The notes: generated by a model not told the origin, from the sequence alone. Shown: positions 2,706 to 22,680, counted from the first letter of the stretch. The stretch: 64,000 nt of DNA from an uncultured Roseobacteraceae bacterium (GCA_964394585.1 CAYMYI010000001.1:8713-72712), one strand, 5' to 3'. Translations and numbers: made by a program.

Positions 2706-2975
2706 ATTTACTTTAGTTAGTGAGTAGTTGTATGATTGTGTAATTTTTAATGCAAATCCGTTATAAACTTCTATAAAATTAGGAGAATTTGGCACAAAAC
2801 CGAATTATTGTATCATATTCCCATACAAGGCAAAGTGCGGCATACTTATACCTGCGTTATACACACTCTTCCATTTGCACGCATCTAATATCCTTATGTA
2901 AATTGGGATTGGATAACTTCCGACATTTTGGATCTCACATTATCAAAATACAATTTTCTCTTATCCAACATAGTT

Positions 2976-3821
2976 ATGAATTTTACCCTCGACCCTACTT
3001 TGGTACACAGCCTCGTTTTGATTGTTCTATATGCGCTGGTTTTTCTGTTTGCCCGGTATGTCCGAAGTTGGTTTTCAACATTCAAAATAGGGCATCAACT
3101 TGTACATGAAGATAATAGCGCTTTTGCCATCAGCATAGCAGGGTATTTTATAGGGATTACAGCAGTTTTTGTGGGGGCTAGTAGAGGAGCTACACAAGGG
3201 TTATTGCACGATATCATGTTAGTCTCGGCATACTCTTTAGCCGGCATCGTCGCTATGAACCTCGCCCGAATTGTAAACGATCGCATTATTCTAGAACAGT
3301 TCTCAAACACACATGAAATTATCCAACAGCGCAATATCGCTGCTGGTATCGTTCAAGGTGCTTACTACATAGCTTCTGGGCTTATTGTAGCAGGGGCTGT
3401 AAGTGGCGAATCAGGCGGGCCGCTTTCCGCCTTCGTTTTCTTTGTAGTGGGGCAACTTATACTTATCATTTTTTCGCGAATTTACATAAGCATTGTAGGG
3501 TATTCAGTACACGATGAACTTAAAACGCAAAACGTTCCCGTGGCACTCAGTTTTTCTGGAAACCTCATTGCTATGAGCTTAATTATTATGAGAGCCATTG
3601 CGGGTACTTTTGTAGGTTGGGGCGAAAGTTTTTTATATCTGGTACTCGACCTTGCCCTCATAGTCTTGTATTTGGTATTAGTTCGGCAATATTTTGACCG
3701 CCTCATTATTCCCGGTTCTAAACTACGCAAAGAATTAATTGAAGACCGAAATTTAGGGGCCGGTGCCTTGGAAATGTTTGTGGCTATTTGTTTTGGCCTT
3801 GTGATTGTATTTCTGTTTTAA
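2976..3821 (+). CDS. Membrane protein with four DUF350-like repeats
   Basis: There are four repeats of a polar-x-x-N-x-A-x-A...G...I helix unit: HEDNSAFAISIAGYFIG, QQRNIAAGIVQGAYYIASG, KTQNVPVALSFSGNLIA and EDRNLGAGALEMFVAICFG. The start was moved to the ATG at 2976 (MNFTLDP...). Confidence 0.55.
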   Translation: MNFTLDPTLVHSLVLIVLYALVFLFARYVRSWFSTFKIGHQLVHEDNSAFAISIAGYFIGITAVFVGASRGATQGLLHDIMLVSAYSLAGIVAMNLARIVNDRIILEQFSNTHEIIQQRNIAAGIVQGAYYIASGLIVAGAVSGESGGPLSAFVFFVVGQLILIIFSRIYISIVGYSVHDELKTQNVPVALSFSGNLIAMSLIIMRAIAGTFVGWGESFLYLVLDLALIVLYLVLVRQYFDRLIIPGSKLRKELIEDRNLGAGALEMFVAICFGLVIVFLF

Positions 3822-5158
3822 TGTTGAAGCAAGTAGCGAATTTTCCACCGCAACCAACGGAGCGTTTGTTTGAATAGCGCTCCCAAACGCAACGGGAAAC
3901 TAAAATGTACCCATACGAGTCCAAGTACCCCGCCCACCCAATAGCTTAGAATAGTTACAAGAGCCACTGCCCATAATTTTTGAAAAGATAGGATAACCCA
4001 TAGGTTTCCGATCACATTCAATAAAACCATACACCACACTTGAACAAAACTGCGTTCAGGGTAGTGTAAGGCTTCTAAGGCCACTCCTGAAAACCGAAAG
4101 AAAGGCGCTAGTACGGTACTCAGTGCAAGCCCCCACCAAACTGCCTGATACTCTGTTTCGGCTAACCCAAAAGACAACCCCGCCATCAGTAAGGCTGCGG
4201 GAATCGAAAATAGAAAAGTCACACCAAGGTACATCCCCCAAATTCTCCGAAAACGAAGCATTTTTTTGGGGGGCTTCACCCCATTAAATACCGATACCAA
4301 GCGAGGGTACGCATTGGCTGTCATACTGCGGATTAGCAAATCAGACCATTCGGTAAGCCGAAGTGGAAGGTGGTAAAAAGCAAGACACTCGGGCGAAGCC
4401 AAAATTCCCAGCATAAACGTATCTGATGACTTCAACAAATTAAGAGCCGTAAGGCTGCCCATGCTGTATCTACCAAAATGAAACATTTTCTTTAACGTGC
4501 CCCAGGTTGCATATCGCAATATCGATATATCGCAAAGCCCATTGTACAGCGTAATTACCGAAGCGATAAGATGCCCTAGTAAATAGAATAACACAATTTG
4601 CACTACATTAAAAGGCTGCAGTGTATGCAGCAATACAAAAAAAGTAAACGTACCAAAAACCACTAAGCGCAAGCGAAAACTAAAAAGGAATAAACGCTTG
4701 ACATTCAAGTGCCACTGCGCAAACATAAACGGGAATGAAGCAACCAGCAGCAAAGGAGCGTAGTGCCAAAAAAGGTAATAGGCATCCCTTTCGAACGGCG
4801 CACTGAGCTGAGCACCTACCAACAAGCCGCCCATCAGAAGCAACGTTACCCCTCCCCCTATCCAAAGGCTTGCCGATAGATACGGAATGCGCTTCGTTTC
4901 TTCCATGCCACTCGTGTAGCGAATCAGTGCCGATTGCACTACCCCGGTGCGTAGTAACTCTAAAAAGCTACTACCGGTAATAAAAATGCCCCATTGCCCA
5001 AAACTGACTACCGGCAACGTGTAATATAAAATCAGCAGATTGAGCAGCCCCAATAAAGCAATGCTTCCGTTGTTCCACCACGCTTGCCAATGCGGACTCC
5101 CCCACAGTGCAGCCATGCCAAAGCCCTGTTTCGTGTTTTCTGTCTCAGTTTCCTTCAT
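3818..5158 (-). CDS. Polysaccharide biosynthesis / oligosaccharide flippase-like membrane protein (MOP superfamily)
   Basis: 446-aa polytopic membrane protein with Wzx/RfbX-like organisation. Its stop overlaps the convergent DUF350 gene by 4 nt. The family call is by general resemblance only. Confidence 0.5.
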   Translation of the reverse strand: MKETETENTKQGFGMAALWGSPHWQAWWNNGSIALLGLLNLLILYYTLPVVSFGQWGIFITGSSFLELLRTGVVQSALIRYTSGMEETKRIPYLSASLWIGGGVTLLLMGGLLVGAQLSAPFERDAYYLFWHYAPLLLVASFPFMFAQWHLNVKRLFLFSFRLRLVVFGTFTFFVLLHTLQPFNVVQIVLFYLLGHLIASVITLYNGLCDISILRYATWGTLKKMFHFGRYSMGSLTALNLLKSSDTFMLGILASPECLAFYHLPLRLTEWSDLLIRSMTANAYPRLVSVFNGVKPPKKMLRFRRIWGMYLGVTFLFSIPAALLMAGLSFGLAETEYQAVWWGLALSTVLAPFFRFSGVALEALHYPERSFVQVWCMVLLNVIGNLWVILSFQKLWAVALVTILSYWVGGVLGLVWVHFSFPLRLGALFKQTLRWLRWKIRYLLQH

Positions 5159-5249: not shown

Positions 5250-6509
5250 ATGAAACGAACCCCCTGGTTATGGATACCTTCCCTTTATTTCACCGAAGGA
5301 CTTCCGTATGTAATGGTGATGACTGTATCGGTCATCATGTACAAAAAACTAGAAATTTCAAATGCGGAAATCGCCCTCTACACGAGCTGGTTATACCTAC
5401 CTTGGGTTATTAAACCGATATGGAGCCCCTTAATCGATTTAATAGGAAAGAAACGAAGTTGGATTACCGTAATGCAGTTTATCATTGGGGCTGCCCTAGC
5501 AGGCGTAGCCCTTACCATCCCTACAAGCAACTTTTTTCAGTTCACCTTAGCATTCTTTTGGCTAATGGCATTTAGCTCCGCAACGCACGATATCGCCGCC
5601 GATGGTTTTTACATGATTGGACTTACCAAACATCAACAAGCTTTTTTTGTAGGAATCCGCAGCACATTTTATCGCCTAGCAATGATTACCGGCCAAGGTC
5701 TTATTGTCATCCTAGCAGGTTATCTGGAAATTGTTTACAAGCCTACCATCGCTTGGAGTCTAACGTTTGGAGCTATTGCAGCCATGTTGGTCGTTTCAGG
5801 CATATGGCATCTGGTATTTCTTCCAAAAACAGAATACGATCGAGCCGCTCGCTCTTCAGAAAACCCATTACAAGCTTTCTTTGGCACTTTTGTACTCTTT
5901 TTCAAGAAAAAGAAGATTGGTTTTATCGTTGCGTTTCTTTTGTTGTACCGCCTCGGTGAAGCCCAGCTTGTAAAACTAGCCTCCCCCTTTTTACTTGATA
6001 CCCCTTCCCAAGGAGGGCTTGGGCTCGAAACTGCACAAGTAGGGCTGGTGTATGGCACTATTGGGGTGATTGCTCTTACCATAGGCGGTATACTCGGGGG
6101 CGTTGTGGTATCACAAAAAGGGCTCAAGTTTTGGCTTTGGTGGATGCTTCTTGCCATCAACATTCCCAACGGAGTCTACATCCTACTTTCCGTATTCCAG
6201 CCCAACTCATTCATATTGATTAGTGCCGCCGTAGCACTCGAGCAGTTCGGCTATGGTTTTGGCTTCACCGCTTATATGCTCTATATGATTCACATTGCCG
6301 AAGGTCCCCACAAAACCGCGCATTTTGCACTGGCAACAGGTTTTATGGCACTCGGAATGATGCTACCCGGTATGGTGAGCGGCTCCTTACAAGAATGGTT
6401 GGGCTACCCAGTTTTTTTCACGTGGGTGTTACTCTGCACCATTCCGGGGTTCCTCGTAGCAGCATTCATCCCTATCGAAGCAAACTTTGGGAAAAAAGCA
6501 TCCACATAG
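5250..6509 (+). CDS. ampG: AmpG-family MFS muropeptide permease
   Basis: The N-terminus WIPSLYFTEGLPYVMV is the typical AmpG start. About 12 TM helices across 419 aa. Confidence 0.75.
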   Translation: MKRTPWLWIPSLYFTEGLPYVMVMTVSVIMYKKLEISNAEIALYTSWLYLPWVIKPIWSPLIDLIGKKRSWITVMQFIIGAALAGVALTIPTSNFFQFTLAFFWLMAFSSATHDIAADGFYMIGLTKHQQAFFVGIRSTFYRLAMITGQGLIVILAGYLEIVYKPTIAWSLTFGAIAAMLVVSGIWHLVFLPKTEYDRAARSSENPLQAFFGTFVLFFKKKKIGFIVAFLLLYRLGEAQLVKLASPFLLDTPSQGGLGLETAQVGLVYGTIGVIALTIGGILGGVVVSQKGLKFWLWWMLLAINIPNGVYILLSVFQPNSFILISAAVALEQFGYGFGFTAYMLYMIHIAEGPHKTAHFALATGFMALGMMLPGMVSGSLQEWLGYPVFFTWVLLCTIPGFLVAAFIPIEANFGKKAST

Positions 6510-6633
6510 CTTTAAGCATAAGACACTGATTGTAAGGCATTCCCCCAGAATACTCAAAAACATCTTTACGATTTCCTTTTAAAGTTCTAAGTAATCTGTT
6601 TTTTTTGTACTGAAAGAAAAACGCAAGTAAAGA

Positions 6634-7437
6634 ATGATTGACACCCACGCACACATTTACGTGGATAAATTCAATGCTGATAGAGACGAGATGCTGGAAA
6701 GAGCGTTTTCGCAAGGAGTTTCGCACATTTTTATGCCAAATATCGACGAAGCTTCTATTGAATCCATGTTACAGCTAGCTGAACGGTACCCTACACAATG
6801 TTTCCCGATGATGGGTTTACACCCTTGCTCTGTAGCAAACAACTTCACCAAAGATTTATACTGGGTGGAAGAGTGGCTAGCAAAGCGGCCTTTCGTTGCC
6901 GTTGGGGAAATGGGACTCGACTTATATTGGGACAAAACGTATTTTGAACAACAAAAAGAAGCATTTCGCATACAAGCACAATTTGCCAAACAGTATGATT
7001 TGCCAATTGTGGTTCATACCCGCGAAAGCATGCAAGAGACTATCGAACTTCTCGAAGAATTGCAAGACGGATCTCTCAAAGGAATTGTTCACTGTTTTAC
7101 AGGAACTGTAGCCGATGCCGCTCGCATTGTTGAACTAGGCTTTTACCTAGGCATTGGCGGAGTCGCCACATTTAAAAAAGGAGGGCTTGATACAGTAATC
7201 CCCCATATCAATACCAAGCGTATGGTACTCGAAACCGATAGCCCTTACCTAGCACCTACGCCACATAGAGGCAAACGCAATGAGCCTGCCTATGTAAACT
7301 TAGTAGCAAATAAAGTAGCTGAATATCTTTCTACCGACGTAGAAACCGTTGAACGCATTACCGATGCCAATGCACTAACAATCTATTCCGTAGATCGTTA
7401 TCATATTCAGTTGAAAGAATACGTATCTGCTTCTTAA
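6634..7437 (+). CDS. TatD-family metal-dependent hydrolase (DNase)
   Basis: MIDTHAHIY metal-binding start, internal VHTRES and ETDSPYLAP motifs, 267 aa. Confidence 0.9.
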   Translation: MIDTHAHIYVDKFNADRDEMLERAFSQGVSHIFMPNIDEASIESMLQLAERYPTQCFPMMGLHPCSVANNFTKDLYWVEEWLAKRPFVAVGEMGLDLYWDKTYFEQQKEAFRIQAQFAKQYDLPIVVHTRESMQETIELLEELQDGSLKGIVHCFTGTVADAARIVELGFYLGIGGVATFKKGGLDTVIPHINTKRMVLETDSPYLAPTPHRGKRNEPAYVNLVANKVAEYLSTDVETVERITDANALTIYSVDRYHIQLKEYVSAS

Positions 7438-11093: not shown

Positions 11094-11984
11094 TTAATAC
11101 AACTCATCAAGCTTCATACGTAAATACCGACTGACTGCTAAATAAGCACTGGCGGTACTTACCATCCCTCCTAAACAGACAATTCCTAAAAAGATTGCTG
11201 CATTTAGCCCAAGGTTTTGCAACAATGCCAATTCTTCAATCTGTTGTAAACTATACCAAAGCAACACCGCTAAAATTCCTGAAGCTATACCGCCACTTAA
11301 ACATCCCTGCCACAAAGCTTGCCATAAAAAAGGTTTTTTGATAAACCACCCCGTTGCCCCTACTAATTGCATACTGCGAATGAGAAACCGCTGTGAAAAT
11401 AGGGCGAGTTTGATTGAATTATGGATAAGCACTACAACAGTGATTAAGAAAATAGCGATAAAAACGCCCAATACAATTCCTATTCGGGCAATATTTGCAT
11501 TTATTTTGGCTACCAACCGCTCAGCATATACTACCTCAAATACACCGGAAAGAGTTTGTAGCTCTTGCTGAATGGCTTTCATGTGGTTGCTATCGTAATA
11601 ATCGGAGCGTATGTTTACTAAGAAGGCATCGCGTAGTGGATTTTCCCCCAGAAAACTCACAAAGTCTTCGCCGGTTTCGGCAGCCATTTGTTCTGCCCAT
11701 GCTTCTTTGCTACGATACCGAATGCGCGGTTGGTTTTGTTGTCGATCAATGTAGGGCTTAGAGGCTAATGCATTTTCTAACTTTCCTCGTTCTATTTCCG
11801 ACAGATCGTTGCTGAGCAGTATCTGTACTTCAATATCTTCTTTCAATTTTTGGGTGAGCCGAGAAGCATTCACTGTAAACAGCAAAAAAAGCCCAATCAT
11901 GAATAAGGCAGTGGTAATACTAAAAATCACGTTAGAAGCCGGATAACTTCCTACACGTTTCCGAGGTTGCAGTGCATTTGCCAT
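11094..11984 (-). CDS. ftsX: Cell-division protein FtsX-like permease
   Basis: TM1 plus a periplasmic domain plus three C-terminal TMs, with FtsX-like FLIRSMQLVGATGWFIKKPF. Trimmed to the ATG at 11984, because the 12143 start would overlap the divergent speH-speE gene. Confidence 0.75.
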   Translation of the reverse strand: MANALQPRKRVGSYPASNVIFSITTALFMIGLFLLFTVNASRLTQKLKEDIEVQILLSNDLSEIERGKLENALASKPYIDRQQNQPRIRYRSKEAWAEQMAAETGEDFVSFLGENPLRDAFLVNIRSDYYDSNHMKAIQQELQTLSGVFEVVYAERLVAKINANIARIGIVLGVFIAIFLITVVVLIHNSIKLALFSQRFLIRSMQLVGATGWFIKKPFLWQALWQGCLSGGIASGILAVLLWYSLQQIEELALLQNLGLNAAIFLGIVCLGGMVSTASAYLAVSRYLRMKLDELY

Positions 11985-12134
11985 AGGTTGAGGTTCAAGT
12001 CCGCTTGGTGAAATTAACACACACTTAGCATTTTCGCATAGCTTGTTTGTATCCGAAGTTTTAAAATCAGTCGGAGAGCTAGAAGTTTGCAGAGTTTTAG
12101 CAAACTTGTTCTGCACATCTTTTAATACATCATT

Positions 12135-13397
12135 ATGCCACAACTCAATGCCCTAGGGCGACACCTTATCGCTGAACTGTTCGATTGTCCTTCCTCCCTA
12201 CTACACGAAGTAGATCATGTTAAAGATGCGATGGTAACAGCCGCCCAAAAAGCAAATGCTACCTTAGTGAATGTAACGTTTCATCATTTTGCCCCTTTTG
12301 GAGTTTCAGGAGTCGTAGTAATTCAGGAAAGTCATTTGGCAATCCACACCTGGCCAGAGTATGGCTACGCTTCGGTAGATATTTATACTTGTGGCGATTC
12401 GGTAGATCCGTGGATAGCCCTTTCGAGCTTAGAAAAACAGCTACAAGCACAGCGCGTTTCGTGTATAGAACTTAGCCGCGGGCAAATGAGCCAACTCCCT
12501 GCTTCTCAACCACTACCTACGACAGTACCTCAAGGGGTGCTCCCTGAAAGTACATTTACTGAAGATATTTGGTTTACAGAACGCGCCCAGCATTTAGCGC
12601 TTTCAGTACGCCATGCAGGTACGCTGTTGCACCGAGAGGAAAGTCCTTTTCAAAAAATTGAGGTGTATCAAACAGCGGTGTTTGGTAAAATGCTCGTACT
12701 CAACGGCAGCATTGCCATTACACAGCAAGATGAAAACGCTTACCACGAAATGCTAGTACATGTACCAATGCTCAGCCATCCTTCCCCTAAAAATATTTTG
12801 GTGATTGGTGGCGGCGATGGGGGGGCTATCCGTGAAGTAATGCGCCACTCCGAGGTAGAAAAGGTAACCTTAGTAGAGGTAGACAAACGTGTCTCGGAAG
12901 TATGCAAAATGTTTTTCCCTTCGTTAGAGAGCGCCTTTGCAGATAGCCGCCTTCAGGTAGTGAACCAAGATGCACAAACCTTTATAGCAGAAAGCCAAGA
13001 GAGGTTCGACGTAATCCTCATGGATGCCAATGACCCCTTATACAGCAGCGAGCGCGCTATGGAAAGTAGCTTCTACCAAGCCCTAGAAGAAATTATGAAG
13101 CCTAACGCCAGCTTGGTGGTTCCGCTAGGTTCGCCGGCAATTAACCGAGCCGTATTTCGGCAAAACTTTCGGCTATTACAGCAGGTGTTTACCCCAAAAC
13201 GCGTAACGCATTATTTAGCGTTTACCCCTTCTTATTTAACCGGTATGTGGAGTTTTGCCCTGATAGAGGAAAAAGTGAGTGTAAACTCTGAACGGCAACA
13301 ACGGTTTGTTTCGCTGCATGATTTAAAGTATTACAATGCTGCCATCCATAAAAGTGCATTCCACCACCCTACGTTTGTAAAGCGGCTTTTGCAATGA
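12135..13397 (+). CDS. speE: Fused S-adenosylmethionine decarboxylase proenzyme (SpeH type) and spermidine synthase
   Basis: The N-terminal 115 aa carry the pyruvoyl AdoMetDC signature VVVIQESHLAIHTWPEYGYASVDIYTCG (Glu65-Ser66 cleavage site, Ser codon at 12330-12332). The C-terminal 290 aa carry spermidine synthase motifs (YHEMLVH, LVIGGGDGGAIREV, ILMDANDP). Confidence 0.85.
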   Translation: MPQLNALGRHLIAELFDCPSSLLHEVDHVKDAMVTAAQKANATLVNVTFHHFAPFGVSGVVVIQESHLAIHTWPEYGYASVDIYTCGDSVDPWIALSSLEKQLQAQRVSCIELSRGQMSQLPASQPLPTTVPQGVLPESTFTEDIWFTERAQHLALSVRHAGTLLHREESPFQKIEVYQTAVFGKMLVLNGSIAITQQDENAYHEMLVHVPMLSHPSPKNILVIGGGDGGAIREVMRHSEVEKVTLVEVDKRVSEVCKMFFPSLESAFADSRLQVVNQDAQTFIAESQERFDVILMDANDPLYSSERAMESSFYQALEEIMKPNASLVVPLGSPAINRAVFRQNFRLLQQVFTPKRVTHYLAFTPSYLTGMWSFALIEEKVSVNSERQQRFVSLHDLKYYNAAIHKSAFHHPTFVKRLLQ

Positions 13398-13453
13398 TAT
13401 ACTCGAAACGAATTGAGCAGTTCGCCGCTACGGTTGAAAATGAAGAGGCAATG

Positions 13454-14716
13454 CTAAAACAAGGACTCTACATTTTGTAAAGTGGCACTTTCCGGAGCGA
13501 GCATGCTGGCAATCATGAACGAGATAGACGCTACAACTAGCCCAATCATAAAAATGGTGTAAGCTATCCGCAAGTAGTGGTACTTTTTTCCCAAGACTGA
13601 CCCTATGAAATAAATATCGCGAATCATGCTGCCGTATAGATAGTCGGCATCTTCAATCATTTCTTTCATTCCCCACTCAAAATCTTGGAGTTTCATTTTA
13701 TAGAAATTGCCAAAAAACAACAGGTTTGCGCGTTTTTCTTGAATGTCTTCCTTCGTAAAACGGCCAGAAGTTACGTTAGGACGTGTAGCTAAAATGGCAA
13801 ATACGATGGAGGAAAGGCATACTGTGAGCAATAAAAATGTGGGAATGATAAGGTGTGGGTTGCTATCGAGCTTACGAATGAGCACCCCGATAATGATGGT
13901 GATAATGATAGAGTTGACCGAAATTAGTATGTTGGCTTTGCTATCGGCCATTGAGCTAAAATCCACATGGTTTCGGGAAGTAACACGGAACATGGTTTCA
14001 ATTCCTCTTTCAGGTCGCCCTTCTGCCTTCTCAAGTTTCTTTTTCATTTTCTTGAGCTGCGTACTATCTACTCCTAACTCGCTCATCAAATAGTCTTCTT
14101 CTTGTTTCTTCAGCTTTTTAAGCCGTTTTTCGAGTTTCTTAAGGTTTTTAGCCTTTCCCTCGTTCAAGTTTTCTTGGGCATACGGTGTGAAATATTGATG
14201 TTTTTCCAGAAAAGAGATGTTTTCTTCGAGCCATGCCTGTTCGGTATAAGTCGCCGGTTGGGTATGTTCCCATTCTTGGCGAAGCAAAAGACTTTTCTCG
14301 GCAAATTGCTTGGTTGAAAGGTGGTACAAATCAGCATCGCAGATTACCTGTTCTGCCAATGTTTTGGGGGTTTGAGGCATGCGAGTAGCCTCAATCAGAC
14401 CCTCTACTTGCACAATGCGGGCTTCATCCAGCCCTTCTTTTTGTAAAAATTCACGAGCAGTCTGCTTACTTACCGTTTCGTGGTCGTGGGTATTGGAGTC
14501 GGTGTAGCCAATATCGTGCAGCCATGCAGCAACTAACACCATTTCGAGGGAATCTTCGGGGAGAGCTGAAGCTTCTCCGATTTCTTGGGCAGCCTCTACC
14601 ACTTCTTGAGTATGGGTAAGATCGTGGTAGACAAAATGCGAAGGAAGGCTTTGTAAGTGCATTATGGCAAACGATTGCGCCGCTTCGACAAGTGAGGAGT
14701 GAGGTAATATAGCCAT
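13454..14716 (-). CDS. HD-domain phosphohydrolase fused to a PycTM-like (DUF5706) membrane domain
   Basis: N-terminal HD motif (YHDLTHTQEV...AAWLHDIGY), a Lys-rich coiled linker, then RGIETMFRVTSRNHVDFSSMADSKANILISV plus three TM helices. The C-terminal part resembles the Pycsar-effector/DUF5706 family as I recall it. Confidence 0.65.
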   Translation of the reverse strand: MAILPHSSLVEAAQSFAIMHLQSLPSHFVYHDLTHTQEVVEAAQEIGEASALPEDSLEMVLVAAWLHDIGYTDSNTHDHETVSKQTAREFLQKEGLDEARIVQVEGLIEATRMPQTPKTLAEQVICDADLYHLSTKQFAEKSLLLRQEWEHTQPATYTEQAWLEENISFLEKHQYFTPYAQENLNEGKAKNLKKLEKRLKKLKKQEEDYLMSELGVDSTQLKKMKKKLEKAEGRPERGIETMFRVTSRNHVDFSSMADSKANILISVNSIIITIIIGVLIRKLDSNPHLIIPTFLLLTVCLSSIVFAILATRPNVTSGRFTKEDIQEKRANLLFFGNFYKMKLQDFEWGMKEMIEDADYLYGSMIRDIYFIGSVLGKKYHYLRIAYTIFMIGLVVASISFMIASMLAPESATLQNVESLF

Positions 14717-14726
14717 ACGTTATTTT

Positions 14727-16994
14727 TTACTCGGTAGAAACAGAGGTAGAATTTTGAGAGGAGACATTGCGCTCCATTTTTGGCTTGGGCGGTTGTGTAA
14801 GTTGTTGCGATTCGCGCAGTAAACTCTGCGTATTGAGTGCATTAAGAGCGCTCGCAATGCTAGAAGCTAAATTTATAGTTACCTTTTGGATGAACTCTCT
14901 GCGATAAAGAGGGATTTCCTCTAACGAAGCCACCTCAATCACACCGTAAATCACCTCGTTCATCATGATGGGTTCGAGTAAAATAGCCTTAGGAATCATT
15001 TTCATAAGTCCTGTTCTAATGGCAGGATATTCTGAGGGGATGTCGTTCATGTAAATCGAGTCGCGATCTTGCCAACATTGGCTTACTACACCTTGCCCCC
15101 ATTCAATCTGTAAATTCATGTGTTTTTTGCGCTCGTAGGCATAGCATGCTTTCATTTCCAGCCATTCTTTCTGCCCGTTTTCCCGTTCGATGAGGTACAC
15201 TGCTCCTTGTGCCAACCCTACGTAATTCATAAGAAAATGAAGAGCTTGATCGGTGAGCGATGCCAAATCATGATTATGTTTTCGAAGGATATCGGAAAAC
15301 TGTGCCATCCCCTCGGTAGTCCAGTTGCGCTTTCGATCGTCGTCGGCAACTGACTTCAACTGATCTCGCATTTCAGTGAGCGATTTACCCAGCTGATCTT
15401 CTTCGCCAATAGCTTTAAAACTAGAGTCAAACTGCCCCTGTCCTATTGCTTCGGCAAACTTAGCTGCTTTATCAATTCTATCAATCAAATGGTTCATAGC
15501 GAAAGTAGTTTGTCCAATCTCATCCGTTCCAAACACATTTAACCGTTTCACCGATTTCCCTTCTGATAGCTCCATTAAGGTATTACGCAGTTTTTTAATG
15601 GGTTTTACAAACCAACGCGAGTAAAAGTACCCAAGTAACGAGGTAACCACAAAGATGACCACCATCGCTAGGAAGATGTTGCGTTGTAGGGTATAAATGA
15701 GCGAAAAGGCTTCTTCTTCTTCAATTTCAGAAACGATTGCCCAATCTACGCCTTCGATATCAAGATCGCTGAAGGCACTAAGCGAGCGCGTTCCTCGGTA
15801 GTTTTCAATAATTTCAACGCCGGTTACTCCTTGTAAAGCTAAGCGAGCGGCTTCGGTTTCTACAGGTTGAAATAATAGTGAGGTATTGTGCCGGCGAATG
15901 AGTTCCACTTCTTTGGGTGTGTACATTTTTTCAATAGTTTCAAAAAAACCATCGGGGTTTTCGATAAGCATGCGGGCATCGCTTCGCATTTTAAAGTCGC
16001 TGCCAATCAAGTAGGTTTCGCCGGTTACACCCAAGCCTTCTACTTCCCATTGCTGGTTACCGGTAATAATATTTCGGATAGCATTGGGTGAGATTTGGAA
16101 AGCGAGTACCCCAATTTTTTCTTGCTTATCGAAAATAGGCGATGCAATGAATGCCGCTGGGGCATCGTACGAAGGGGGATATTTTTCGAAGTCGGTCAGC
16201 GCAACAAAATTTTTAAAGGGCGATTCTGCCGCTTTACGAAAAACTTCTGCGATGTTGGAATCGCGATAAGGGCCATCTTTTAAGCTAGTCATGTAATCGA
16301 CTTCTTTAAAAACGGAATAGATGATGCGCCCCGATTCAGGCTCTATCAAGAAAATATCATAAATATCAAACTCTTTGAGGTAATTGCGATAAATGGAATG
16401 ATAACGCGCATGAACATCACTGTACAAGCTTCCATCGTTGCTTTTTTCGAGGAGGTCTTTAGAACCTGTAGGGTATGGGTTTCCGCTAATATAATAGAAT
16501 TGTAGCTTCAGCGAGGCGCTGTTATCAATCATAAACTCTTCTACGGTAGCGGTGGTATCGTTAGAAATTTTTTGCCATGCAGGTAAAAATTCCCCTGCGT
16601 AATAATCGTTCAAACTCACTAGCATAGAGTCTGGCGGTACATCTCCGTAAAAATCATTTTCTAAGAATAAAGAAGCATTTTTAAAATTTTGCATGGCATC
16701 CACAGTCATCCGACTTTCAGAAAGGGTAATCACCTGTTTACGAAGCTGGTCAAAATAATCGGTGATGGCTTGCCGTTTAGTTTCCCTTACCGAGCGTAGC
16801 TGGTCGAACGTTACTTTTTCTAAAGCATTAGTTGCCGAAATATACCCTAGCGCACCAATGGTAAAAATGGCGATGTTTGCCACAATAAATAGGGCTAATT
16901 GTACTTTAAATCGGATGCTGATATTTTCCCAGCGAAATCCCTCTAAAACGTTGTTCTTCGAGGCTGCTGGCTTTTGCGTTTCAGTGCTTTCCAT
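14727..16994 (-). CDS. Membrane sensor: large periplasmic (Cache-like) domain, HAMP and GAF, with no output domain
   Basis: TM1 (FKVQLALFIVANIAIFTIGALGYI), about 400 aa periplasmic region, TM2 followed by HAMP (FVKPIKKLRNTLMELSEGK...DEIGQTTFAMNHLIDRI), then a GAF-like domain (LAQGAVYLIE...VIYGVIEVASL). It ends 10 bp before the HD-PycTM gene. Confidence 0.7.
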   Translation of the reverse strand: MESTETQKPAASKNNVLEGFRWENISIRFKVQLALFIVANIAIFTIGALGYISATNALEKVTFDQLRSVRETKRQAITDYFDQLRKQVITLSESRMTVDAMQNFKNASLFLENDFYGDVPPDSMLVSLNDYYAGEFLPAWQKISNDTTATVEEFMIDNSASLKLQFYYISGNPYPTGSKDLLEKSNDGSLYSDVHARYHSIYRNYLKEFDIYDIFLIEPESGRIIYSVFKEVDYMTSLKDGPYRDSNIAEVFRKAAESPFKNFVALTDFEKYPPSYDAPAAFIASPIFDKQEKIGVLAFQISPNAIRNIITGNQQWEVEGLGVTGETYLIGSDFKMRSDARMLIENPDGFFETIEKMYTPKEVELIRRHNTSLLFQPVETEAARLALQGVTGVEIIENYRGTRSLSAFSDLDIEGVDWAIVSEIEEEEAFSLIYTLQRNIFLAMVVIFVVTSLLGYFYSRWFVKPIKKLRNTLMELSEGKSVKRLNVFGTDEIGQTTFAMNHLIDRIDKAAKFAEAIGQGQFDSSFKAIGEEDQLGKSLTEMRDQLKSVADDDRKRNWTTEGMAQFSDILRKHNHDLASLTDQALHFLMNYVGLAQGAVYLIERENGQKEWLEMKACYAYERKKHMNLQIEWGQGVVSQCWQDRDSIYMNDIPSEYPAIRTGLMKMIPKAILLEPIMMNEVIYGVIEVASLEEIPLYRREFIQKVTINLASSIASALNALNTQSLLRESQQLTQPPKPKMERNVSSQNSTSVSTE

Positions 16995-17251: not shown

Positions 17252-18790
17252 TTAGCGTAGTATCATCAAATAGCCTTTTAGTGGGGGTAGGCCGCTTTCA
17301 AATTCTATGGTATAGAAATAAGTGCCATCGGCTAAGTTAGCACCTCCCCAATCGCTTTGATAATTGGTAGACTCAAACACAAGATTCCCCCATTGGTTGT
17401 ACACTTTTATAGTATGCCCGGCTGCTTGGTCGATGTTATCGATAATCCAAACATCGTTAAAGCCATCGGCATTGGGCGAAATCCCTGTGTGGACGTCTAA
17501 TGGTGGAATTACTCGGATAGTTACCGAATCGGTATTGGTACAGCCATCCTGATCGGTTACTTCGAGCACTACGGTATATTCTCCTTGTTCGGTGTAGCGG
17601 TTGACGGGCGTTGGGGTAATGGCAAAGCTGCTATCGCCTAAGTTCCACAGGTAGGAGGCGGCGTTCTGGTCGCTAACAGCAGAAAAGTTTACAGTTAAGG
17701 GGGCATATCCAATTAAAGGGGTTGCTTGAATTTCTGCAGGCACTACGCCCTCTTTCAGGTTCACGAAAAAAGGGACTGGTTCGCTTTCGATATCGTTTAT
17801 GGTTTGAGTTACATACAGCGTATCGGGTACTGTTTCCGGCTGGTAGATTTGCCCTGTGGTGAGCAACTCGTTCAAGCCTGCATCGGCATACCAACGTACA
17901 TTTAACCCATTGGCACTGGCAATCGGGATTGGCGTGTTTTGGCATACCACGATGGGAGAATTTATCGTTGGAGGGGCTACGGTATCAATACTAGGAATTG
18001 CGAAGGGAAACGTGATATTGCAGCCGTTGGCATCTTGCACAATAAGGGTGTAGTTACCCTCGGCGAGGTTATCAAATAACGGCTGGCTTTGAAAAGGCCC
18101 TCCATCGAGCGAGTAGGTTGTAGGAGCATCGCCCCCTTGTACTTCATCGATTTGGATACTTCCGTTCGCTGCTCCAATTAACGATGGGGTTATGGTAGTG
18201 GCACTTACACTGAACGGGCCATCTACTACGGTTTCGTTTCCATTTTTGCAGCCATCGCAATAAGTGGGTTCTATCGGCGCGACCCTTAAAGAAAAAGTTC
18301 CCTCTTCAAGATCGCTTTGTGAACCCACAATGATGTAAAACTCTTGGCGATTTTCCACACATGTTAACCCTGTGAAAAGCGCCATGCTATCGGCTGAAGC
18401 GCAGGCATCGGAACCCAAAAACCACTGCCCTACCCCCCCGCAAACGTCAGGGGTCATTAGCGCAACGTTTAATCGGGCATTGTCTTCAGGGATAATATCG
18501 ACGCGCATACCTCGGATGAAGGGCGTATCCAACGTAAAACGAAAATAAACAGTATTTTGCCAGGGATCTTCGCCTAAGCAACTCCCATTTAAAAATGTAT
18601 TTTCGGAAGTGGCTCCTACATTCGATACACTGTTCAGTTCGAGTACTTCTTGGGTGCGCACTACGCCCAAATCTGTTGCATTGCAGGGCAAGTCGTTGAT
18701 GGGAGCCTGTCCATAAACGGTAGTGGATATTATGACCGAAACGAACAGAAATAAAAACAAAATGCGAAAAGGAGTGATAGAAAATGCCAT
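17252..18790 (-). CDS. Secreted surface protein with SprB-type repeat, Ig-like and PKD domains, and a T9SS type-B (CHU_C) C-terminal sorting domain
   Basis: Signal peptide; PKD motif (YLWNLGDSS...GEYTVVLEVTDQDGC); C-terminal GISPNADGFNDVWIIDNI...YNQWGNLVF...DGTYFYTIEF...KGYLMILR, typical of the gliding-motility C-terminal domain. Confidence 0.8.
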   Translation of the reverse strand: MAFSITPFRILFLFLFVSVIISTTVYGQAPINDLPCNATDLGVVRTQEVLELNSVSNVGATSENTFLNGSCLGEDPWQNTVYFRFTLDTPFIRGMRVDIIPEDNARLNVALMTPDVCGGVGQWFLGSDACASADSMALFTGLTCVENRQEFYIIVGSQSDLEEGTFSLRVAPIEPTYCDGCKNGNETVVDGPFSVSATTITPSLIGAANGSIQIDEVQGGDAPTTYSLDGGPFQSQPLFDNLAEGNYTLIVQDANGCNITFPFAIPSIDTVAPPTINSPIVVCQNTPIPIASANGLNVRWYADAGLNELLTTGQIYQPETVPDTLYVTQTINDIESEPVPFFVNLKEGVVPAEIQATPLIGYAPLTVNFSAVSDQNAASYLWNLGDSSFAITPTPVNRYTEQGEYTVVLEVTDQDGCTNTDSVTIRVIPPLDVHTGISPNADGFNDVWIIDNIDQAAGHTIKVYNQWGNLVFESTNYQSDWGGANLADGTYFYTIEFESGLPPLKGYLMILR

Positions 18791-19046
18791 AAGGATACCG
18801 GATTGCTATACCTTACAAAAATCGGCAAATTTTACGCCTTTTCGGCAAAAAGTAGGAAAGCAATCGGCAGAGGAGTACTGCGCTATGGGCATACGGATGA
18901 ATCTCTGATAGGAAAATACGCTTTTTGCGTGTAAAAAATGCCCATACTGCTTATATTCAAAATAATTACAAACGGATTATAGCATGTATTTCTAAATTGT
19001 AGGATGCTACTTCCATCAATCTATTATTCAAATAATACTGCAAAAC

Positions 19047-20759
19047 ATGAAAAAAATTCAACTATTCGCACTGATTTTTCTGTTGAGTGCCTTAGGCTGC
19101 GAGCCACCGAAAGATACTACTGATACCCCTACAGAAGGGCGCTTGCCCGATGTAAGTGCCCAAGCCCCTACGAATGTTCCATTTACTTGGGATAACGCTA
19201 ATATCTATTTTTTACTGACCGACCGGTTCAATAATGGCAGTACGGAAAACGATGTAAATTTCGGGCGCGATGGCGAAACCGGTGTATTACGAGGATTTAT
19301 GGGAGGCGACCTTAAAGGAATTACTCAAAAGATAGAAGAAGGCTACTTTACAAAGTTGGGGATTTCTGCCATTTGGTTTACCCCAATCGTAGAACAGATT
19401 CACGAGGGAGTAGATGAAGGTACAGGAGCTACGTATGGTTTCCACGGATATTGGACAAAAGATTGGACTACGCTCGACCCTAACTTTGGCACGTTCGAAG
19501 ACCTTAGCGAATTGGTAGAAAAAGCACATGCCAACGGAATCCGAATCATCTTAGATGTGGTAGTCAACCATACCGGCCCTGTAACTGAGAAAGATCCTGT
19601 GTGGGAAAATTGGGTACGCACCGAACCGCAGTGTACCTATCAAGATTACGAGACGACGGTTTCGTGTACGCTCGTAAAAAACCTTCCCGATGTGTTAACC
19701 AATAGCGACGAGGAAGTAGGCATTCCGCCTCACCTTGAAGCAAAGTGGAAAGAAGAAGGGCGCTACGAACAAGAAATTGCAGAACTCGATGCGTTTTTTG
19801 AACGGACAGGGTATCCGCGTGCTCCTCGCTTTTACATCATCAAATGGCTCACCGATTACATCCGAGAGTTTGGCGTAGATGGTTTTCGGGTAGATACCGT
19901 GAAACATACTGAAGAAAGCGTATGGGGCGAATTGTGGAAAGAGGCATTGGCGGCTTTTCAGCAATGGAAAACAGAAAACCCAGATAAAGTAATGGACGAT
20001 AACGAATTCTATATGATGGGCGAAGTCTACGGATATGGCATTTCAGGAGGAAGAATGTACGATTTCGGCGATAAAAACGTCGATTATTTCGCTGAAGGCT
20101 TTAAAAGCCTCATCAATTTTGAATTTAAATACGATGCTAACGAAAAATCGTACGAAGAGATTTACACAAAATACGATAGCCTACTGCGCACCAAATTACC
20201 TGAACACAATGTGGTGAACTATCTTTCTTCGCACGACGACGGCAGCCCTTTTGATGCTCAGCGCACGAAGCCCTTCGAAGCGGCTAATAAATTACTGCTT
20301 GCCCAGGGTGCTGCGCAGGTGTACTACGGCGATGAAAGTAGCCGATCGTTAATCGTTGAAGGAACAGAGGGAGATGCTACGCTGCGCTCGTTCATGAATT
20401 GGGAAGAAATTGAAGAAAATGCGACACGTGGCAACCAAGAAATTATTGATGTGCTCATCCATTGGCAAAAGCTAGGGCAATTCCGCAAAGCCCACCCAGC
20501 AATTGGCGCAGGAGCACACGAAATGCTCTCAGAGAAACCCTATGTATTTAAGCGCATTTACCAACAAGGCGATTGGCTCGATAAAGTAGTGGTTGGACTC
20601 GATATGCCTGAAGGCGAAAAAAACTTACCAGTAACCGGTGTATTTGCCGAAGGTACTGAACTCACCGATGCGTATTCAGGCAAACGGGCAACCGTTACAA
20701 ACGGAACCGTTACGCTCGATACCCGACACAGTGTAGTACTACTCCACCAAGACTTGTAA
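19047..20759 (+). CDS. GH13 alpha-amylase family lipoprotein
   Basis: Lipobox LSALGC, and GH13 conserved regions DVVVNHTG, GFRVDTVKH, MMGEVY and YLSSHDD. Confidence 0.85.
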   Translation: MKKIQLFALIFLLSALGCEPPKDTTDTPTEGRLPDVSAQAPTNVPFTWDNANIYFLLTDRFNNGSTENDVNFGRDGETGVLRGFMGGDLKGITQKIEEGYFTKLGISAIWFTPIVEQIHEGVDEGTGATYGFHGYWTKDWTTLDPNFGTFEDLSELVEKAHANGIRIILDVVVNHTGPVTEKDPVWENWVRTEPQCTYQDYETTVSCTLVKNLPDVLTNSDEEVGIPPHLEAKWKEEGRYEQEIAELDAFFERTGYPRAPRFYIIKWLTDYIREFGVDGFRVDTVKHTEESVWGELWKEALAAFQQWKTENPDKVMDDNEFYMMGEVYGYGISGGRMYDFGDKNVDYFAEGFKSLINFEFKYDANEKSYEEIYTKYDSLLRTKLPEHNVVNYLSSHDDGSPFDAQRTKPFEAANKLLLAQGAAQVYYGDESSRSLIVEGTEGDATLRSFMNWEEIEENATRGNQEIIDVLIHWQKLGQFRKAHPAIGAGAHEMLSEKPYVFKRIYQQGDWLDKVVVGLDMPEGEKNLPVTGVFAEGTELTDAYSGKRATVTNGTVTLDTRHSVVLLHQDL

Positions 20760-20786
20760 GCCCATCGGCAAATCTTCCGTGAAAAT

Positions 20787-20826
20787 CCCCTCGGATGTTT
20801 ATAATGCGCTGAGGGGATTTTACATT
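20787..20826 (+). terminator. Intrinsic terminator after the amylase gene
   Basis: CCCCTCGG (20787-20794) pairs with CTGAGGGG (20809-20816) as 8 bp including one G-U pair. It is followed by the T-rich ATTTTACATTT. Confidence 0.55.
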
Positions 20827-20856
20827 TACAGATTGATAAAATGGAAACAACTTTAT

Positions 20857-22680
20857 ATGGACTCCTCCATTCTGGCGCAAACCATTGCCCAATTACAGCA
20901 ACTGGTTACCGATGCTAAAAACCTTGAACTAGAGCACCAAGAACGGCTCAACCGAGTACACCCCAAATGGCGTGACAGTGCTGCTAATTTATTACACTAT
21001 CGGGCTTTGCGGCGGCACGATATCCGCCAACTGCAAATTACTCTTTCCAAATTGGGGATGTCGCGGCTTGCAAAAGCTGAAGCGCATATTTTGCCGAGTG
21101 TGGAGGCTACTATTGCCATCTTGCAAAATTTTTTGCAGGCTAATCCGCTCGATTTGCAAAGCATCCCCTCCGAAAAAATTGAACTTGGAGGTACGTTATT
21201 AAAAGAGCACTCCGAAGCGTTGCTGGGCAAAACACCGCCTAATCGGAATGTGAGCATCATGGTAACTCAACCCACCGAAGCGGCTCACTCCCAAGAAATT
21301 GCCGATAAAATGCTTGCCGCCGGGCTAGATTGTGCTCGCATTAATTGTGCCCACGATACGCCCCACGATTGGAAAACAATGGTGCAATTTATTAAGGCAA
21401 GTGGGCACCAGCGCGGAAAAGAAGTAAAAATCTGTATGGACTTGGCAGGGCCTAAAATTCGAACCGGTGCCGTGCAGCCCGGTCCGCATGTGGTACGATT
21501 TAAGGCTCAAAAAAACGAAAAAGGAGAGGTAGTAATGCCTGCTCGTTTCTATCTACAACCCGAAACCACTCCCCCCGCTCCAGAATCAGTACCCGTCCCT
21601 GAGTCTTTTTTACAAGAACTAAGAGAAGGCACTACCTTGAAACTCCGCGATGCCCGCCAGAAAAAGAGAGTACTCTATGTAGAAGCAGTAGAAGAGCAGA
21701 AAGTAACCGTAGTATGCCACAAAACCGTGTACTTAGAAACTGGCACACGCCTATCTCTTAAAAAGAAAAAAACAGAAATAGTTGGCACCATAGGCGCATT
21801 GCCTGCTGTAGAAATGCCCCTTGTATTGCAAACAGGCGATGTGCTGTTGCTTACCAAATCGAATGCCCCGGGCATGCCTGCCGAGTACGACGATGCCGGA
21901 GACCTAATCCGCCCAGCGTTTATCTCGTGCACTGCCCCCCACGTATTCTACGATTTGAAAGCAGGGGAAACCGTTTTGTTCGACGATGGTAAAATCGCCG
22001 GCATTATCCAAAGTGTTTCTATCGAAGAAGTGAATGTTCGCATCACACATACGCCTCCTAATGGTGGTAAACTACGCGCCGATAAGGGCATTAACTTTCC
22101 GCAGAGCAACTTAAAAATCAGTGGGTTGACTCCTAAAGATATTACAGACCTCGATTTTGTTGCCGAATATGCCGATGTGGTGAATCTTTCGTTTGTGAAC
22201 CGTGCATCCGATGTAGAACGCTTGCGCGAAGAACTCGCCCGATGCAATGCCACCGAAAAGGTGGGTATCATCTTAAAAATTGAAACTGTAACGGGCTACA
22301 ATCAACTTACCGATATTTTGCTCACCGCTATGCAACACTATCCGCTGGGCGTAATGATTGCCCGTGGCGATTTGGCTATAGAAGCTGGCTGGCAAAATCT
22401 CGGGCGCATGCAAGAAGAAATTCTTTCCCTTTGCCATGCGGCACATATTCCGTTGGTGTGGGCCACTCAAGTGCTCGAAACACTCGCAAAAAAAGGCATT
22501 CCTTCCAGAGCAGAACTTACCGATGCAACCATGGCACAACGCACCGAATGCGTAATGCTCAACAAAGGCCCCAATATTGTAGAAGCCATTGGGATGCTTG
22601 CAAATATTTTAGTCGATATGGCATCGTACCAAAATAAAAAGGCGGCTATGCTTCCGCCTATGGCAAAAGCAAATGGGTAA
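20857..22680 (+). CDS. Pyruvate kinase family protein, long non-canonical form
   Basis: PK core motifs are present: SIMVTQPT, ARINCAHD, MDLAGPKIRTG, GVMIARGDLAIE, PSRAELTDA. There is an N-terminal extension of about 165 aa and no C-terminal allosteric domain. The start is set at ATG 20857 because the longer ORF would run through the terminator hairpin. Confidence 0.7.
   Translation: MDSSILAQTIAQLQQLVTDAKNLELEHQERLNRVHPKWRDSAANLLHYRALRRHDIRQLQITLSKLGMSRLAKAEAHILPSVEATIAILQNFLQANPLDLQSIPSEKIELGGTLLKEHSEALLGKTPPNRNVSIMVTQPTEAAHSQEIADKMLAAGLDCARINCAHDTPHDWKTMVQFIKASGHQRGKEVKICMDLAGPKIRTGAVQPGPHVVRFKAQKNEKGEVVMPARFYLQPETTPPAPESVPVPESFLQELREGTTLKLRDARQKKRVLYVEAVEEQKVTVVCHKTVYLETGTRLSLKKKKTEIVGTIGALPAVEMPLVLQTGDVLLLTKSNAPGMPAEYDDAGDLIRPAFISCTAPHVFYDLKAGETVLFDDGKIAGIIQSVSIEEVNVRITHTPPNGGKLRADKGINFPQSNLKISGLTPKDITDLDFVAEYADVVNLSFVNRASDVERLREELARCNATEKVGIILKIETVTGYNQLTDILLTAMQHYPLGVMIARGDLAIEAGWQNLGRMQEEILSLCHAAHIPLVWATQVLETLAKKGIPSRAELTDATMAQRTECVMLNKGPNIVEAIGMLANILVDMASYQNKKAAMLPPMAKANG

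Follow-up and report, generated by a model that had tools for sequence, protein, structure and literature searches.

Adjacent sensor and HD-PycTM genes in a 64-kb bacterial DNA stretch: probably lineage-specific neighbours, not a conserved module

On the minus strand of the 64,000-nucleotide stretch CAYMYI010000001.1:8713-72712 (hereafter the window), the gene for a 755-aa protein with two transmembrane (TM) segments, called here the sensor, ends 10 bp before the gene for a 420-aa protein, called here HD-PycTM, in which an HD phosphohydrolase domain is joined to a three-TM module of the type found in effectors of Pycsar (a pyrimidine cyclase system that gives resistance to phage). Coordinates, lengths and gap were confirmed as an earlier note on this DNA had given them, and the question raised by the locus is whether the two genes belong together, as that note had proposed, in a signalling or stress module. 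The best explanation, to which a probability of about 0.7 is assigned, is that two independent genes came to lie side by side within a single small clade of Cytophagales (Flammeovirgaceae-like) and do not make up a conserved signalling or defence module. The proposal of a two-gene sensor-effector module had been tied by its author to a conserved pairing and to HD-PycTM not being a widespread housekeeping family; the pairing was found in 1 of 68 lineages, HD-PycTM is a widespread family in housekeeping contexts, and the inference of a module therefore fails on both counts.

Occurrence of the gene pair

HD-PycTM loci were collected by a contig scan with the single protein, which yielded 4 loci, its peptide patterns being overly query-specific, and by an alignment-based scan of metagenome contigs, which yielded 80 more. 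The sampled members had a median pairwise identity of 44% and were grouped by single linkage at 70% identity into the 68 lineages. When the sensor was searched by tblastn (E ≤ 1e-3) against 96 HD-PycTM loci, matches were confined to L010-L012, three contigs of one relative; of the 58 loci in which the upstream DNA extends for 2.3 kb or more, 1 has the sensor beside HD-PycTM. This relative, the closest one (HD-PycTM homolog P0003, 66% identity), has a sensor homolog that is 68% identical (P0123). No such sensor was found near HD-PycTM in Flexithrix, Chondrinema, Roseivirga and Reichenbachiella (50-59% identity), or near metagenomic orthologs at 60-61% identity, which have other neighbours. Seen from the other gene, sensor homologs at 37%, 40% and 33% identity have unrelated neighbours, with HD-PycTM beside none of the three, and a 53% identical homolog (P0124) is followed by no more than 69 bp before its contigs end; stop codons occur there in each of the three frames and speak against a closely coupled gene behind it. 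Conservation of the two genes as neighbours is not borne out by these counts: a conserved sensor-effector module is not supported, and the adjacency is a quirk of the lineage. For the window itself the pairing matters little, being a chance arrangement of genes within a single clade.

At the junction, no terminator-like site was found by a consensus scan of the minus strand between sensor and HD-PycTM, and a terminator-like hairpin beyond the HD-PycTM stop (Table 1) is the likely end of the transcription unit. In the 300 bp preceding the HD-PycTM start no TAnnTTTG motif was present, and simple promoter scans (sigma-70 type and Bacteroidota TAnnTTTG) gave nothing informative. Given the 10-bp gap, the lack of a terminator between the genes and the hairpin after HD-PycTM, the two genes are probably co-transcribed in the clade.

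Several points weigh against the explanation as two independent genes. The pair is kept in the L010 relative despite an inverted block of CHU_C, amylase and pyruvate kinase genes and a different gene downstream (a convergent SpeD-SpeE fusion in the window, a NUDIX gene in L010), and such retention would fit selection that keeps the two linked in the clade. As far as presence goes, both genes probably occur in a third related lineage as well (P0002/P0122; P0002 and P0003 are 75% identical, P0122 and P0123 76%). The sample of neighbours comes from metagenomes and is not phylogenetically independent. In five metagenomic loci from 4 of the 68 lineages (L036, L042, L072, L078, L085), HD-PycTM has a membrane class III cyclase nearby, and another lies directly downstream, at 262 bp and in the same orientation, on chromid pFA2 of Fulvitalea axinellae (L108:5808-7016); a link of the family to cyclic nucleoside monophosphates (cNMPs) is a weak lead, without bearing on the window. 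Finally, the substrate, oligomeric state and phosphate-homeostasis role given below to HD-PycTM are inferred from homology and gene neighbourhood.

The alternative best served by the junction and by the retained adjacency in L010 is a real but lineage-specific module, in which the receptor would sense an extracytoplasmic ligand and its GAF domain would directly gate or inhibit HD-PycTM. Both proteins are inner-membrane proteins, and the sensor, having no output domain, needs a protein partner. Such a module is nevertheless rather unlikely: the pairing is missing in 67 of the 68 HD-PycTM lineages and in those sensor homologs at 33-40% identity that allowed a check, and the stops behind the 53% identical homolog point the same way. 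Moreover, the window HD-PycTM has no lineage-specific insertion and keeps all family-invariant residues, its orthologs elsewhere function without the sensor, and the GAF domain lacks a cNMP-binding motif. If the genes are independent, as preferred here, the sensor would be a separate receptor, coupled to HD-PycTM at most by shared transcription within the clade.

The HD-PycTM protein and its family

The recognition of the C-terminal region as PycTM in the earlier note stands. Against PF18967 (PycTM), aa 281-392 scored 132.9 bits (cut-off 27.2) over the full model, and PADLOC PycTM models (154-165 positions) matched aa 250-403 nearly end to end (64, 51 and 44 bits). PADLOC '2TM effector' models of CBASS (antiphage signalling based on cyclic oligonucleotides) also matched this region (E down to 8e-13), and Pfam SLATT models gave no match in HD-PycTM. 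By hydropathy, TM segments were placed at aa 262-280, 290-308 and 388-406, and the module is laid out as an amphipathic pre-helix with TM1, then TM2, a conserved cytoplasmic loop (ATRPN, NLLFFGNF, KY..LR) and TM3. These loop motifs, together with RGIETMFR and MAD.KAN, were invariant in alignments of 46 and 74 sequences. The HD phosphohydrolase domain was confirmed as well: PF01966 was matched with 36.7 bits (cut-off 22), and the metal site (H31, H67-D68, D127/D129), along with H35, H79-E80 and H132, was invariant in both alignments. Column identity was 0.75 in the membrane module, against 0.56 in the HD domain, and reached 0.78 in the cytoplasmic loop between TM2 and TM3; the better conserved membrane module is therefore more than a passive anchor. 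The linker is the least conserved stretch of the protein body, and the C-terminal tail alone varies more.

The AlphaFold2 model of HD-PycTM (predicted local distance difference test, pLDDT, 89) was compared with the PDB using Foldseek. The nearest folds to the HD domain were 2pjq, 2pq7 and Bacillus subtilis YpgQ (5dqw), with TM-scores on the target of 0.67-0.73 and a probability of 1.00, and eukaryotic class I cNMP phosphodiesterases appeared among the more distant matches. The sole PDB sequence match was 2pq7. No fold match was obtained for the three-TM module in the PDB copy searched, which predates the EcPucTM structure. YpgQ is a Mn-dependent (d)NTP pyrophosphohydrolase (PMC8177086). The window protein has in common with the enzymes of this type (5dqw, 2pjq, 2pq7 and Escherichia coli YedJ, 3gw7) the all-helical HD fold and the H...HD...D metal site; those enzymes are soluble, about 200 aa long and 15-24% identical to the window protein, which is fused to a membrane module. 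As judged from its residues, the HD domain is catalytically intact and of the YpgQ/YedJ type, and HD-PycTM would most likely be a membrane-embedded YpgQ-like nucleotide phosphohydrolase built on a Pycsar-type three-TM channel module.

With the TM effectors of Pycsar and Pucsar (PF18967, formerly DUF5706), the window protein shares the whole module over its C-terminal 170 aa, and with EcPucTM the three TM helices combined with a helical cytoplasmic region. PycTM has been equated with a 'pJV1-spdB3 family 3TM' module, and EcPucTM, a cyclase-linked homolog, was shown to form a six-fold, cylindrical channel in which each protomer contributes three TM helices, in a preprint that does not mention HD fusions (bioRxiv 10.64898/2026.08.12.744502). 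The window protein differs in having no adjacent PycC or PucC and no defence island, in belonging to a conserved chromosomal family, and in carrying an additional N-terminal HD domain and linker of about 235 aa, for which the PADLOC PycTM models are too short. CBASS 2TM and SLATT-type effectors are thought to oligomerise into membrane-breaching assemblies upon nucleotide binding (bioRxiv 10.64898/2025.12.03.692087). Although the '2TM effector' models match the same region of HD-PycTM, its locus, unlike CBASS, has no CD-NTase, SMODS or TIR partner.

HD-PycTM is an ordinary chromosomal ortholog of a very large, annotated Bacteroidota family and not a component of Pycsar phage defence. At least 8000 candidates were returned by a homolog search, the listed matches all being proteins of about 400-420 aa with HD and PycTM; the 120 homologs listed were 50-67% identical at 88-100% coverage and alignable end to end. 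A HMMER search of 1.84 billion representatives gave 770 clusters (50% identity) at E ≤ 1e-30 and 3154 at E ≤ 1e-10. Identity to the window protein tracks taxonomy, falling from about 60% in Flammeovirgaceae to about 50% in other Cytophagales and to 40-49% in Flavobacteriaceae, and the window protein agrees with the family in architecture, length and every invariant residue. Family members are named 'Pycsar system effector family protein' or 'DUF5706 domain-containing protein' at NCBI and 'predicted metal-dependent HD superfamily phosphohydrolase' at JGI, and no description of the function of the family or of HD-3TM fusions was found in the literature searched (term 'DUF5706' included).

Nothing in the locus is categorically new, both genes being members of families already named in public databases. 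Thousands of Bacteroidota genes have nonetheless been automatically named 'Pycsar system effector family protein' that lack a cyclase, sit among housekeeping genes and have an intact HD domain. For the HD-PycTM genes this name is probably misleading, and surveys counting them would overestimate the frequency of Pycsar.

The surroundings of the window gene agree with a housekeeping setting. The 48 open reading frames (ORFs) of the window are housekeeping genes, including PfkB, AcrB-type efflux, TatD, IspD, thiolase, a Pst-type phosphate transporter, a tRNA synthetase, FtsX, a SpeD-SpeE fusion, amylase and pyruvate kinase. No class III cyclase was detected among them with a hidden Markov model (HMM) built from the class III cyclases neighbouring the family, Guanylate_cyc was not among the best 25 of the 67 Pfam families of the window, and PADLOC, applied to all ORFs, found no PycC or defence system (generic cross-hits only). 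The note's statement that the window holds no cyclase, and hence no canonical Pycsar system, was upheld by these searches. The locus does not belong to Pycsar: a PycTM module is present, but there is no cyclase and no variable defence-island context, and the neighbours across the 68 lineages are of non-defence type. The region is uniform in GC content, and on this ground and because of its housekeeping flanks an origin of the locus by recent horizontal transfer or from a mobile element was considered and rejected.

By analogy to the hexameric EcPucTM, the three-TM module would oligomerise in the inner membrane and thereby hold the HD domains at its cytoplasmic face, where they may hydrolyse a nucleotide or another phosphoester; the conserved cytoplasmic loop and the HD site would probably share one small phosphorylated ligand, on which they act or to which they respond. 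The recurrent neighbours of the family (Table 2) suggest a phosphate or phosphoester theme, and Metallophos-Omp85, SdiA-regulated/phytase-like, PPK1 and SixA-like proteins among them would be more in keeping with homeostasis of phosphate or nucleotides at the envelope than with abortive infection. A broader proposal, possible but held only tentatively, is that the family constitutes a cyclase-independent, physiological version of the hexameric Pycsar/Pucsar channel, with a loop sensing the nucleotide that the HD domain hydrolyses and a role in phosphate, polyphosphate or nucleotide homeostasis, the PycTM proteins of defence systems being a derived branch and the gene having come to lie in a receptor operon in the clade of the window. 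The family is a reasonable target in the search for a non-immune role of the Pycsar-type three-TM channel, with its neighbours as a lead towards phosphate and nucleotide metabolism.

The similarity to defence proteins also admits an orphan effector of Pycsar- or Pucsar-like abortive infection, in which a cyclase encoded elsewhere would supply a cNMP that opens the three-TM pore, and the HD domain would degrade the signal and so set a threshold. The homology, full-length, to PADLOC models of PycTM and of CBASS 2TM effectors, the cNMP phosphodiesterases among the distant HD fold matches, the membrane class III cyclases next to HD-PycTM on the Fulvitalea chromid and in a small number of other loci, and the stand-alone PycTM-like genes on viral contigs are in line with it. 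Defence genes, however, are typically patchy in distribution and sited in defence islands, whereas HD-PycTM has a stable housekeeping context, an identity that follows taxonomy and conserved non-defence neighbours. The cyclases near HD-PycTM (about 400-436 aa) vary in orientation and are nearby in no more than the 4 lineages named; they matched PycC models at E 1e-23, and PycC models are expected to match any class III cyclase. PADLOC applied to 146 immediate neighbours of the family found essentially no defence genes, the exceptions being two membrane class III cyclases matching PycC models; SdiA-regulated, His_Phos_1, PFOR, PPK1 and Metallophos families predominate among the neighbours. As, in addition, no cyclase is present in the 64-kb window and the nearest HD relatives are NTP pyrophosphohydrolases and not cNMP phosphodiesterases, an orphan effector is judged improbable.

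The sensor

The composition given for the sensor in the earlier note, a Cache-like domain, HAMP and GAF without an output, was reproduced by Pfam and by AlphaFold2 with Foldseek. The Pfam match to dCache_1 itself was sub-threshold (37.6 bits, cut-off 45); the domain is nevertheless assigned as double-Cache because in the AlphaFold2 model (pLDDT 85) its structure matches solved double-Cache domains (PctA/B/C, CtaA, DctB and Mlp24; Foldseek E about 1e-7 to 1e-8). TM segments were placed by hydropathy at aa 31-49 and 440-458. The GAF domain was matched by Pfam GAF_2 (47.2 bits, cut-off 28.6) and GAF (25.6 bits), was confidently modelled throughout, and had fRMsr (3rfb, TM-score on target 0.71) as its best fold match. 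Residues 734-755, past GAF, are disordered in the model, and no output domain (kinase, cyclase, methyl-accepting chemotaxis protein [MCP], GGDEF/EAL or PP2C) was found after GAF in Pfam or NCBIfam searches; NCBIfam matches were confined to the TM2-HAMP region, which resembles that of sensor kinases and MCPs. Lacking a catalytic output, the sensor would therefore have to signal by protein contacts of its GAF domain.

The GAF domain carries no NKFDE-type motif of cNMP-binding GAF domains, and the suggested link of the sensor to HD-PycTM through nucleotide binding is therefore unsupported. A cNMP-binding GAF was rejected for this reason and for the best fold match to fRMsr.

The chemoreceptors and kinases PctA/B/C, CtaA, DctB and Mlp24 share with the sensor two TM helices around a double-Cache domain followed by HAMP; unlike them, the sensor stops at GAF and has no MCP signalling, kinase, cyclase, GGDEF or phosphatase output. 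Its Cache(-HAMP) module is 40-45% identical to modules of MCPs, class III cyclases, PP2C phosphatases and histidine kinases. About ten full-length dCache-HAMP-GAF homologs (760-840 aa), from several genera including Flammeovirga, are all GAF-terminal, and the sensor belongs to a small Cytophagales family of dCache-HAMP-GAF receptors, a small output-less branch of the dCache-HAMP receptors. That it arose by decay from a histidine kinase or MCP, with loss of the output and with its adjacency being meaningless, was rejected as very improbable: relatives with the same Cache-HAMP module do carry HisKA/HATPase, MCPsignal, cyclase or PP2C domains, but the GAF-terminal architecture is shared by the homologs of several genera, the ORF is intact with a confident model through the whole GAF, and no kinase or MCP remnants were seen downstream, where HD-PycTM begins after 10 bp.

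The double-Cache domain shows an unusually high conservation across phyla and output types. Y132, Q165, N172, H195, D213, Y226, K230, D233, W316 and R341 are invariant, and this residue set suggests a common, specific ligand.

Feature coordinates, family neighbours and other observations

The features of the two genes are collected in Table 1, together with pairs of genes on viral contigs. For Table 2, the ORFs flanking HD-PycTM were clustered over 87 family loci and annotated with Pfam. Most family members are divergent from an SdiA-regulated-like gene beside Metallophos-Omp85, or lie near PPK1 and a SixA-like gene, whereas the window copy follows a dCache-HAMP-GAF gene and none of the recurrent partners of the family is present in the window.

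Table 1. Coordinates of the sensor and HD-PycTM genes, their parts and junction, and of related viral gene pairs
Feature	Position	Strand	Description	Evidence
HD-PycTM gene, 420 aa	13454-14716	-	Local ortholog of a large Bacteroidota family	ORF, Pfam, PADLOC, homologs, AlphaFold2
HD phosphohydrolase domain, about aa 25-175	14192-14644	-	Cytoplasmic	PF01966, conserved metal site, fold match
Helical linker, about aa 176-236	14009-14191	-	Lys/Glu-rich	AlphaFold2 helices 178-214 and 218-232
PycTM / pJV1-spdB3-type 3-TM module, about aa 237-406	13499-14008	-		PF18967, PADLOC, TM segments
Intergenic gap, 10 bp	14717-14726	-	Sensor stop TAA, then AAAATAACGT, then HD-PycTM ATG	
Terminator-like hairpin	13416-13429	-	25 bp past HD-PycTM stop	Weak pattern match only
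Sensor gene, 755 aa	14727-16994	-	TM1, extracytoplasmic double-Cache, TM2, HAMP, helical linker, GAF, disordered tail	ORF, Pfam, AlphaFold2, fold search
Double-Cache ligand-binding domain, about aa 57-431	15702-16826	-	Between TM1 and TM2	Pfam sub-threshold, fold match
HAMP domain, aa 457-507	15474-15626	-		PF00672, 40.6 bits (cut-off 25)
GAF domain, C-terminal, aa 575-717	14844-15272	-	Sole cytoplasmic globular domain after HAMP	
Viral PycTM-like and nucleotidyltransferase pairs	L103:1743-2426 / 2440-4080; L105:4938-5621 / 5635-7281	+	Also in L104, L106, L107	

Table 2. Recurrent neighbours of HD-PycTM genes
Neighbour	Loci (of 87)	Lineages (of 68)	Placement
Metallophos + Omp85 protein, about 1210 aa	40	33	Upstream, divergent
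SdiA-regulated/phytase-like protein, about 286 aa	33	28	Immediately divergent in 28 loci, mostly 16-130 bp off
Polyphosphate kinase PPK1	19	17	Varies
Protein of about 790 aa, weak GAF match	19	13	Mostly convergent downstream
2-Oxoacid:ferredoxin oxidoreductase (PFOR)	14	11	Varies
SixA-like histidine phosphatase (His_Phos_1)	13	11	Varies

The neighbourhood with SdiA-regulated-like and Metallophos-Omp85 genes was seen, for example, in L008, L009, L025, L057 and L077, and not in the window. The neighbour of about 790 aa (e.g. L009:10567-12939(+), L074) matched GAF_2 at E 4e-4 and had otherwise no Pfam domain; it was considered as a counterpart of the sensor and rejected, since tblastn of the sensor against all loci at the threshold given above revealed no similarity.

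Chondrinema has, besides its chromosomal ortholog (L007), a second, divergent HD-PycTM-like paralog on the 238-kb plasmid unnamed8 (L109:4383-5546), which is 43% identical over the C-terminal module and follows an NAD(P)/FAD oxidoreductase gene. On marine IMG/VR viral contigs, a stand-alone 227-aa PycTM-like protein without HD retains MADTKAN and NPLFFGHF, and its gene is followed after 14 bp by one for a class II nucleotidyltransferase of 546 aa that is CCA-adding/poly(A)-polymerase-like and bears a GGAVRD motif.

In the window, the gene convergent with the pair (12135-13397(+)) encodes a 420-aa fusion of AdoMet_dc (S-adenosylmethionine decarboxylase, aa 10-116) and spermidine synthase (aa 145-384), and its first 9 bases overlap a divergent FtsX-like ORF (11094-12143(-)), which is listed from an alternative TTG start. 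The block on the other side (17252-22680), consisting of genes for CHU_C/PKD cargo of the type IX secretion system, alpha-amylase and pyruvate kinase, has in L010:1-3951 the reverse orientation with respect to the pair, and the L010 relative has an additional DinB_2 gene besides the NUDIX gene downstream. The window pyruvate kinase (20779-22680(+)) is of unusual length, with 633 aa counted from a GTG start against 607 aa in L010; its match to the Pfam PK barrel falls mainly at aa 380-595, implying a large N-terminal extension or insertion.

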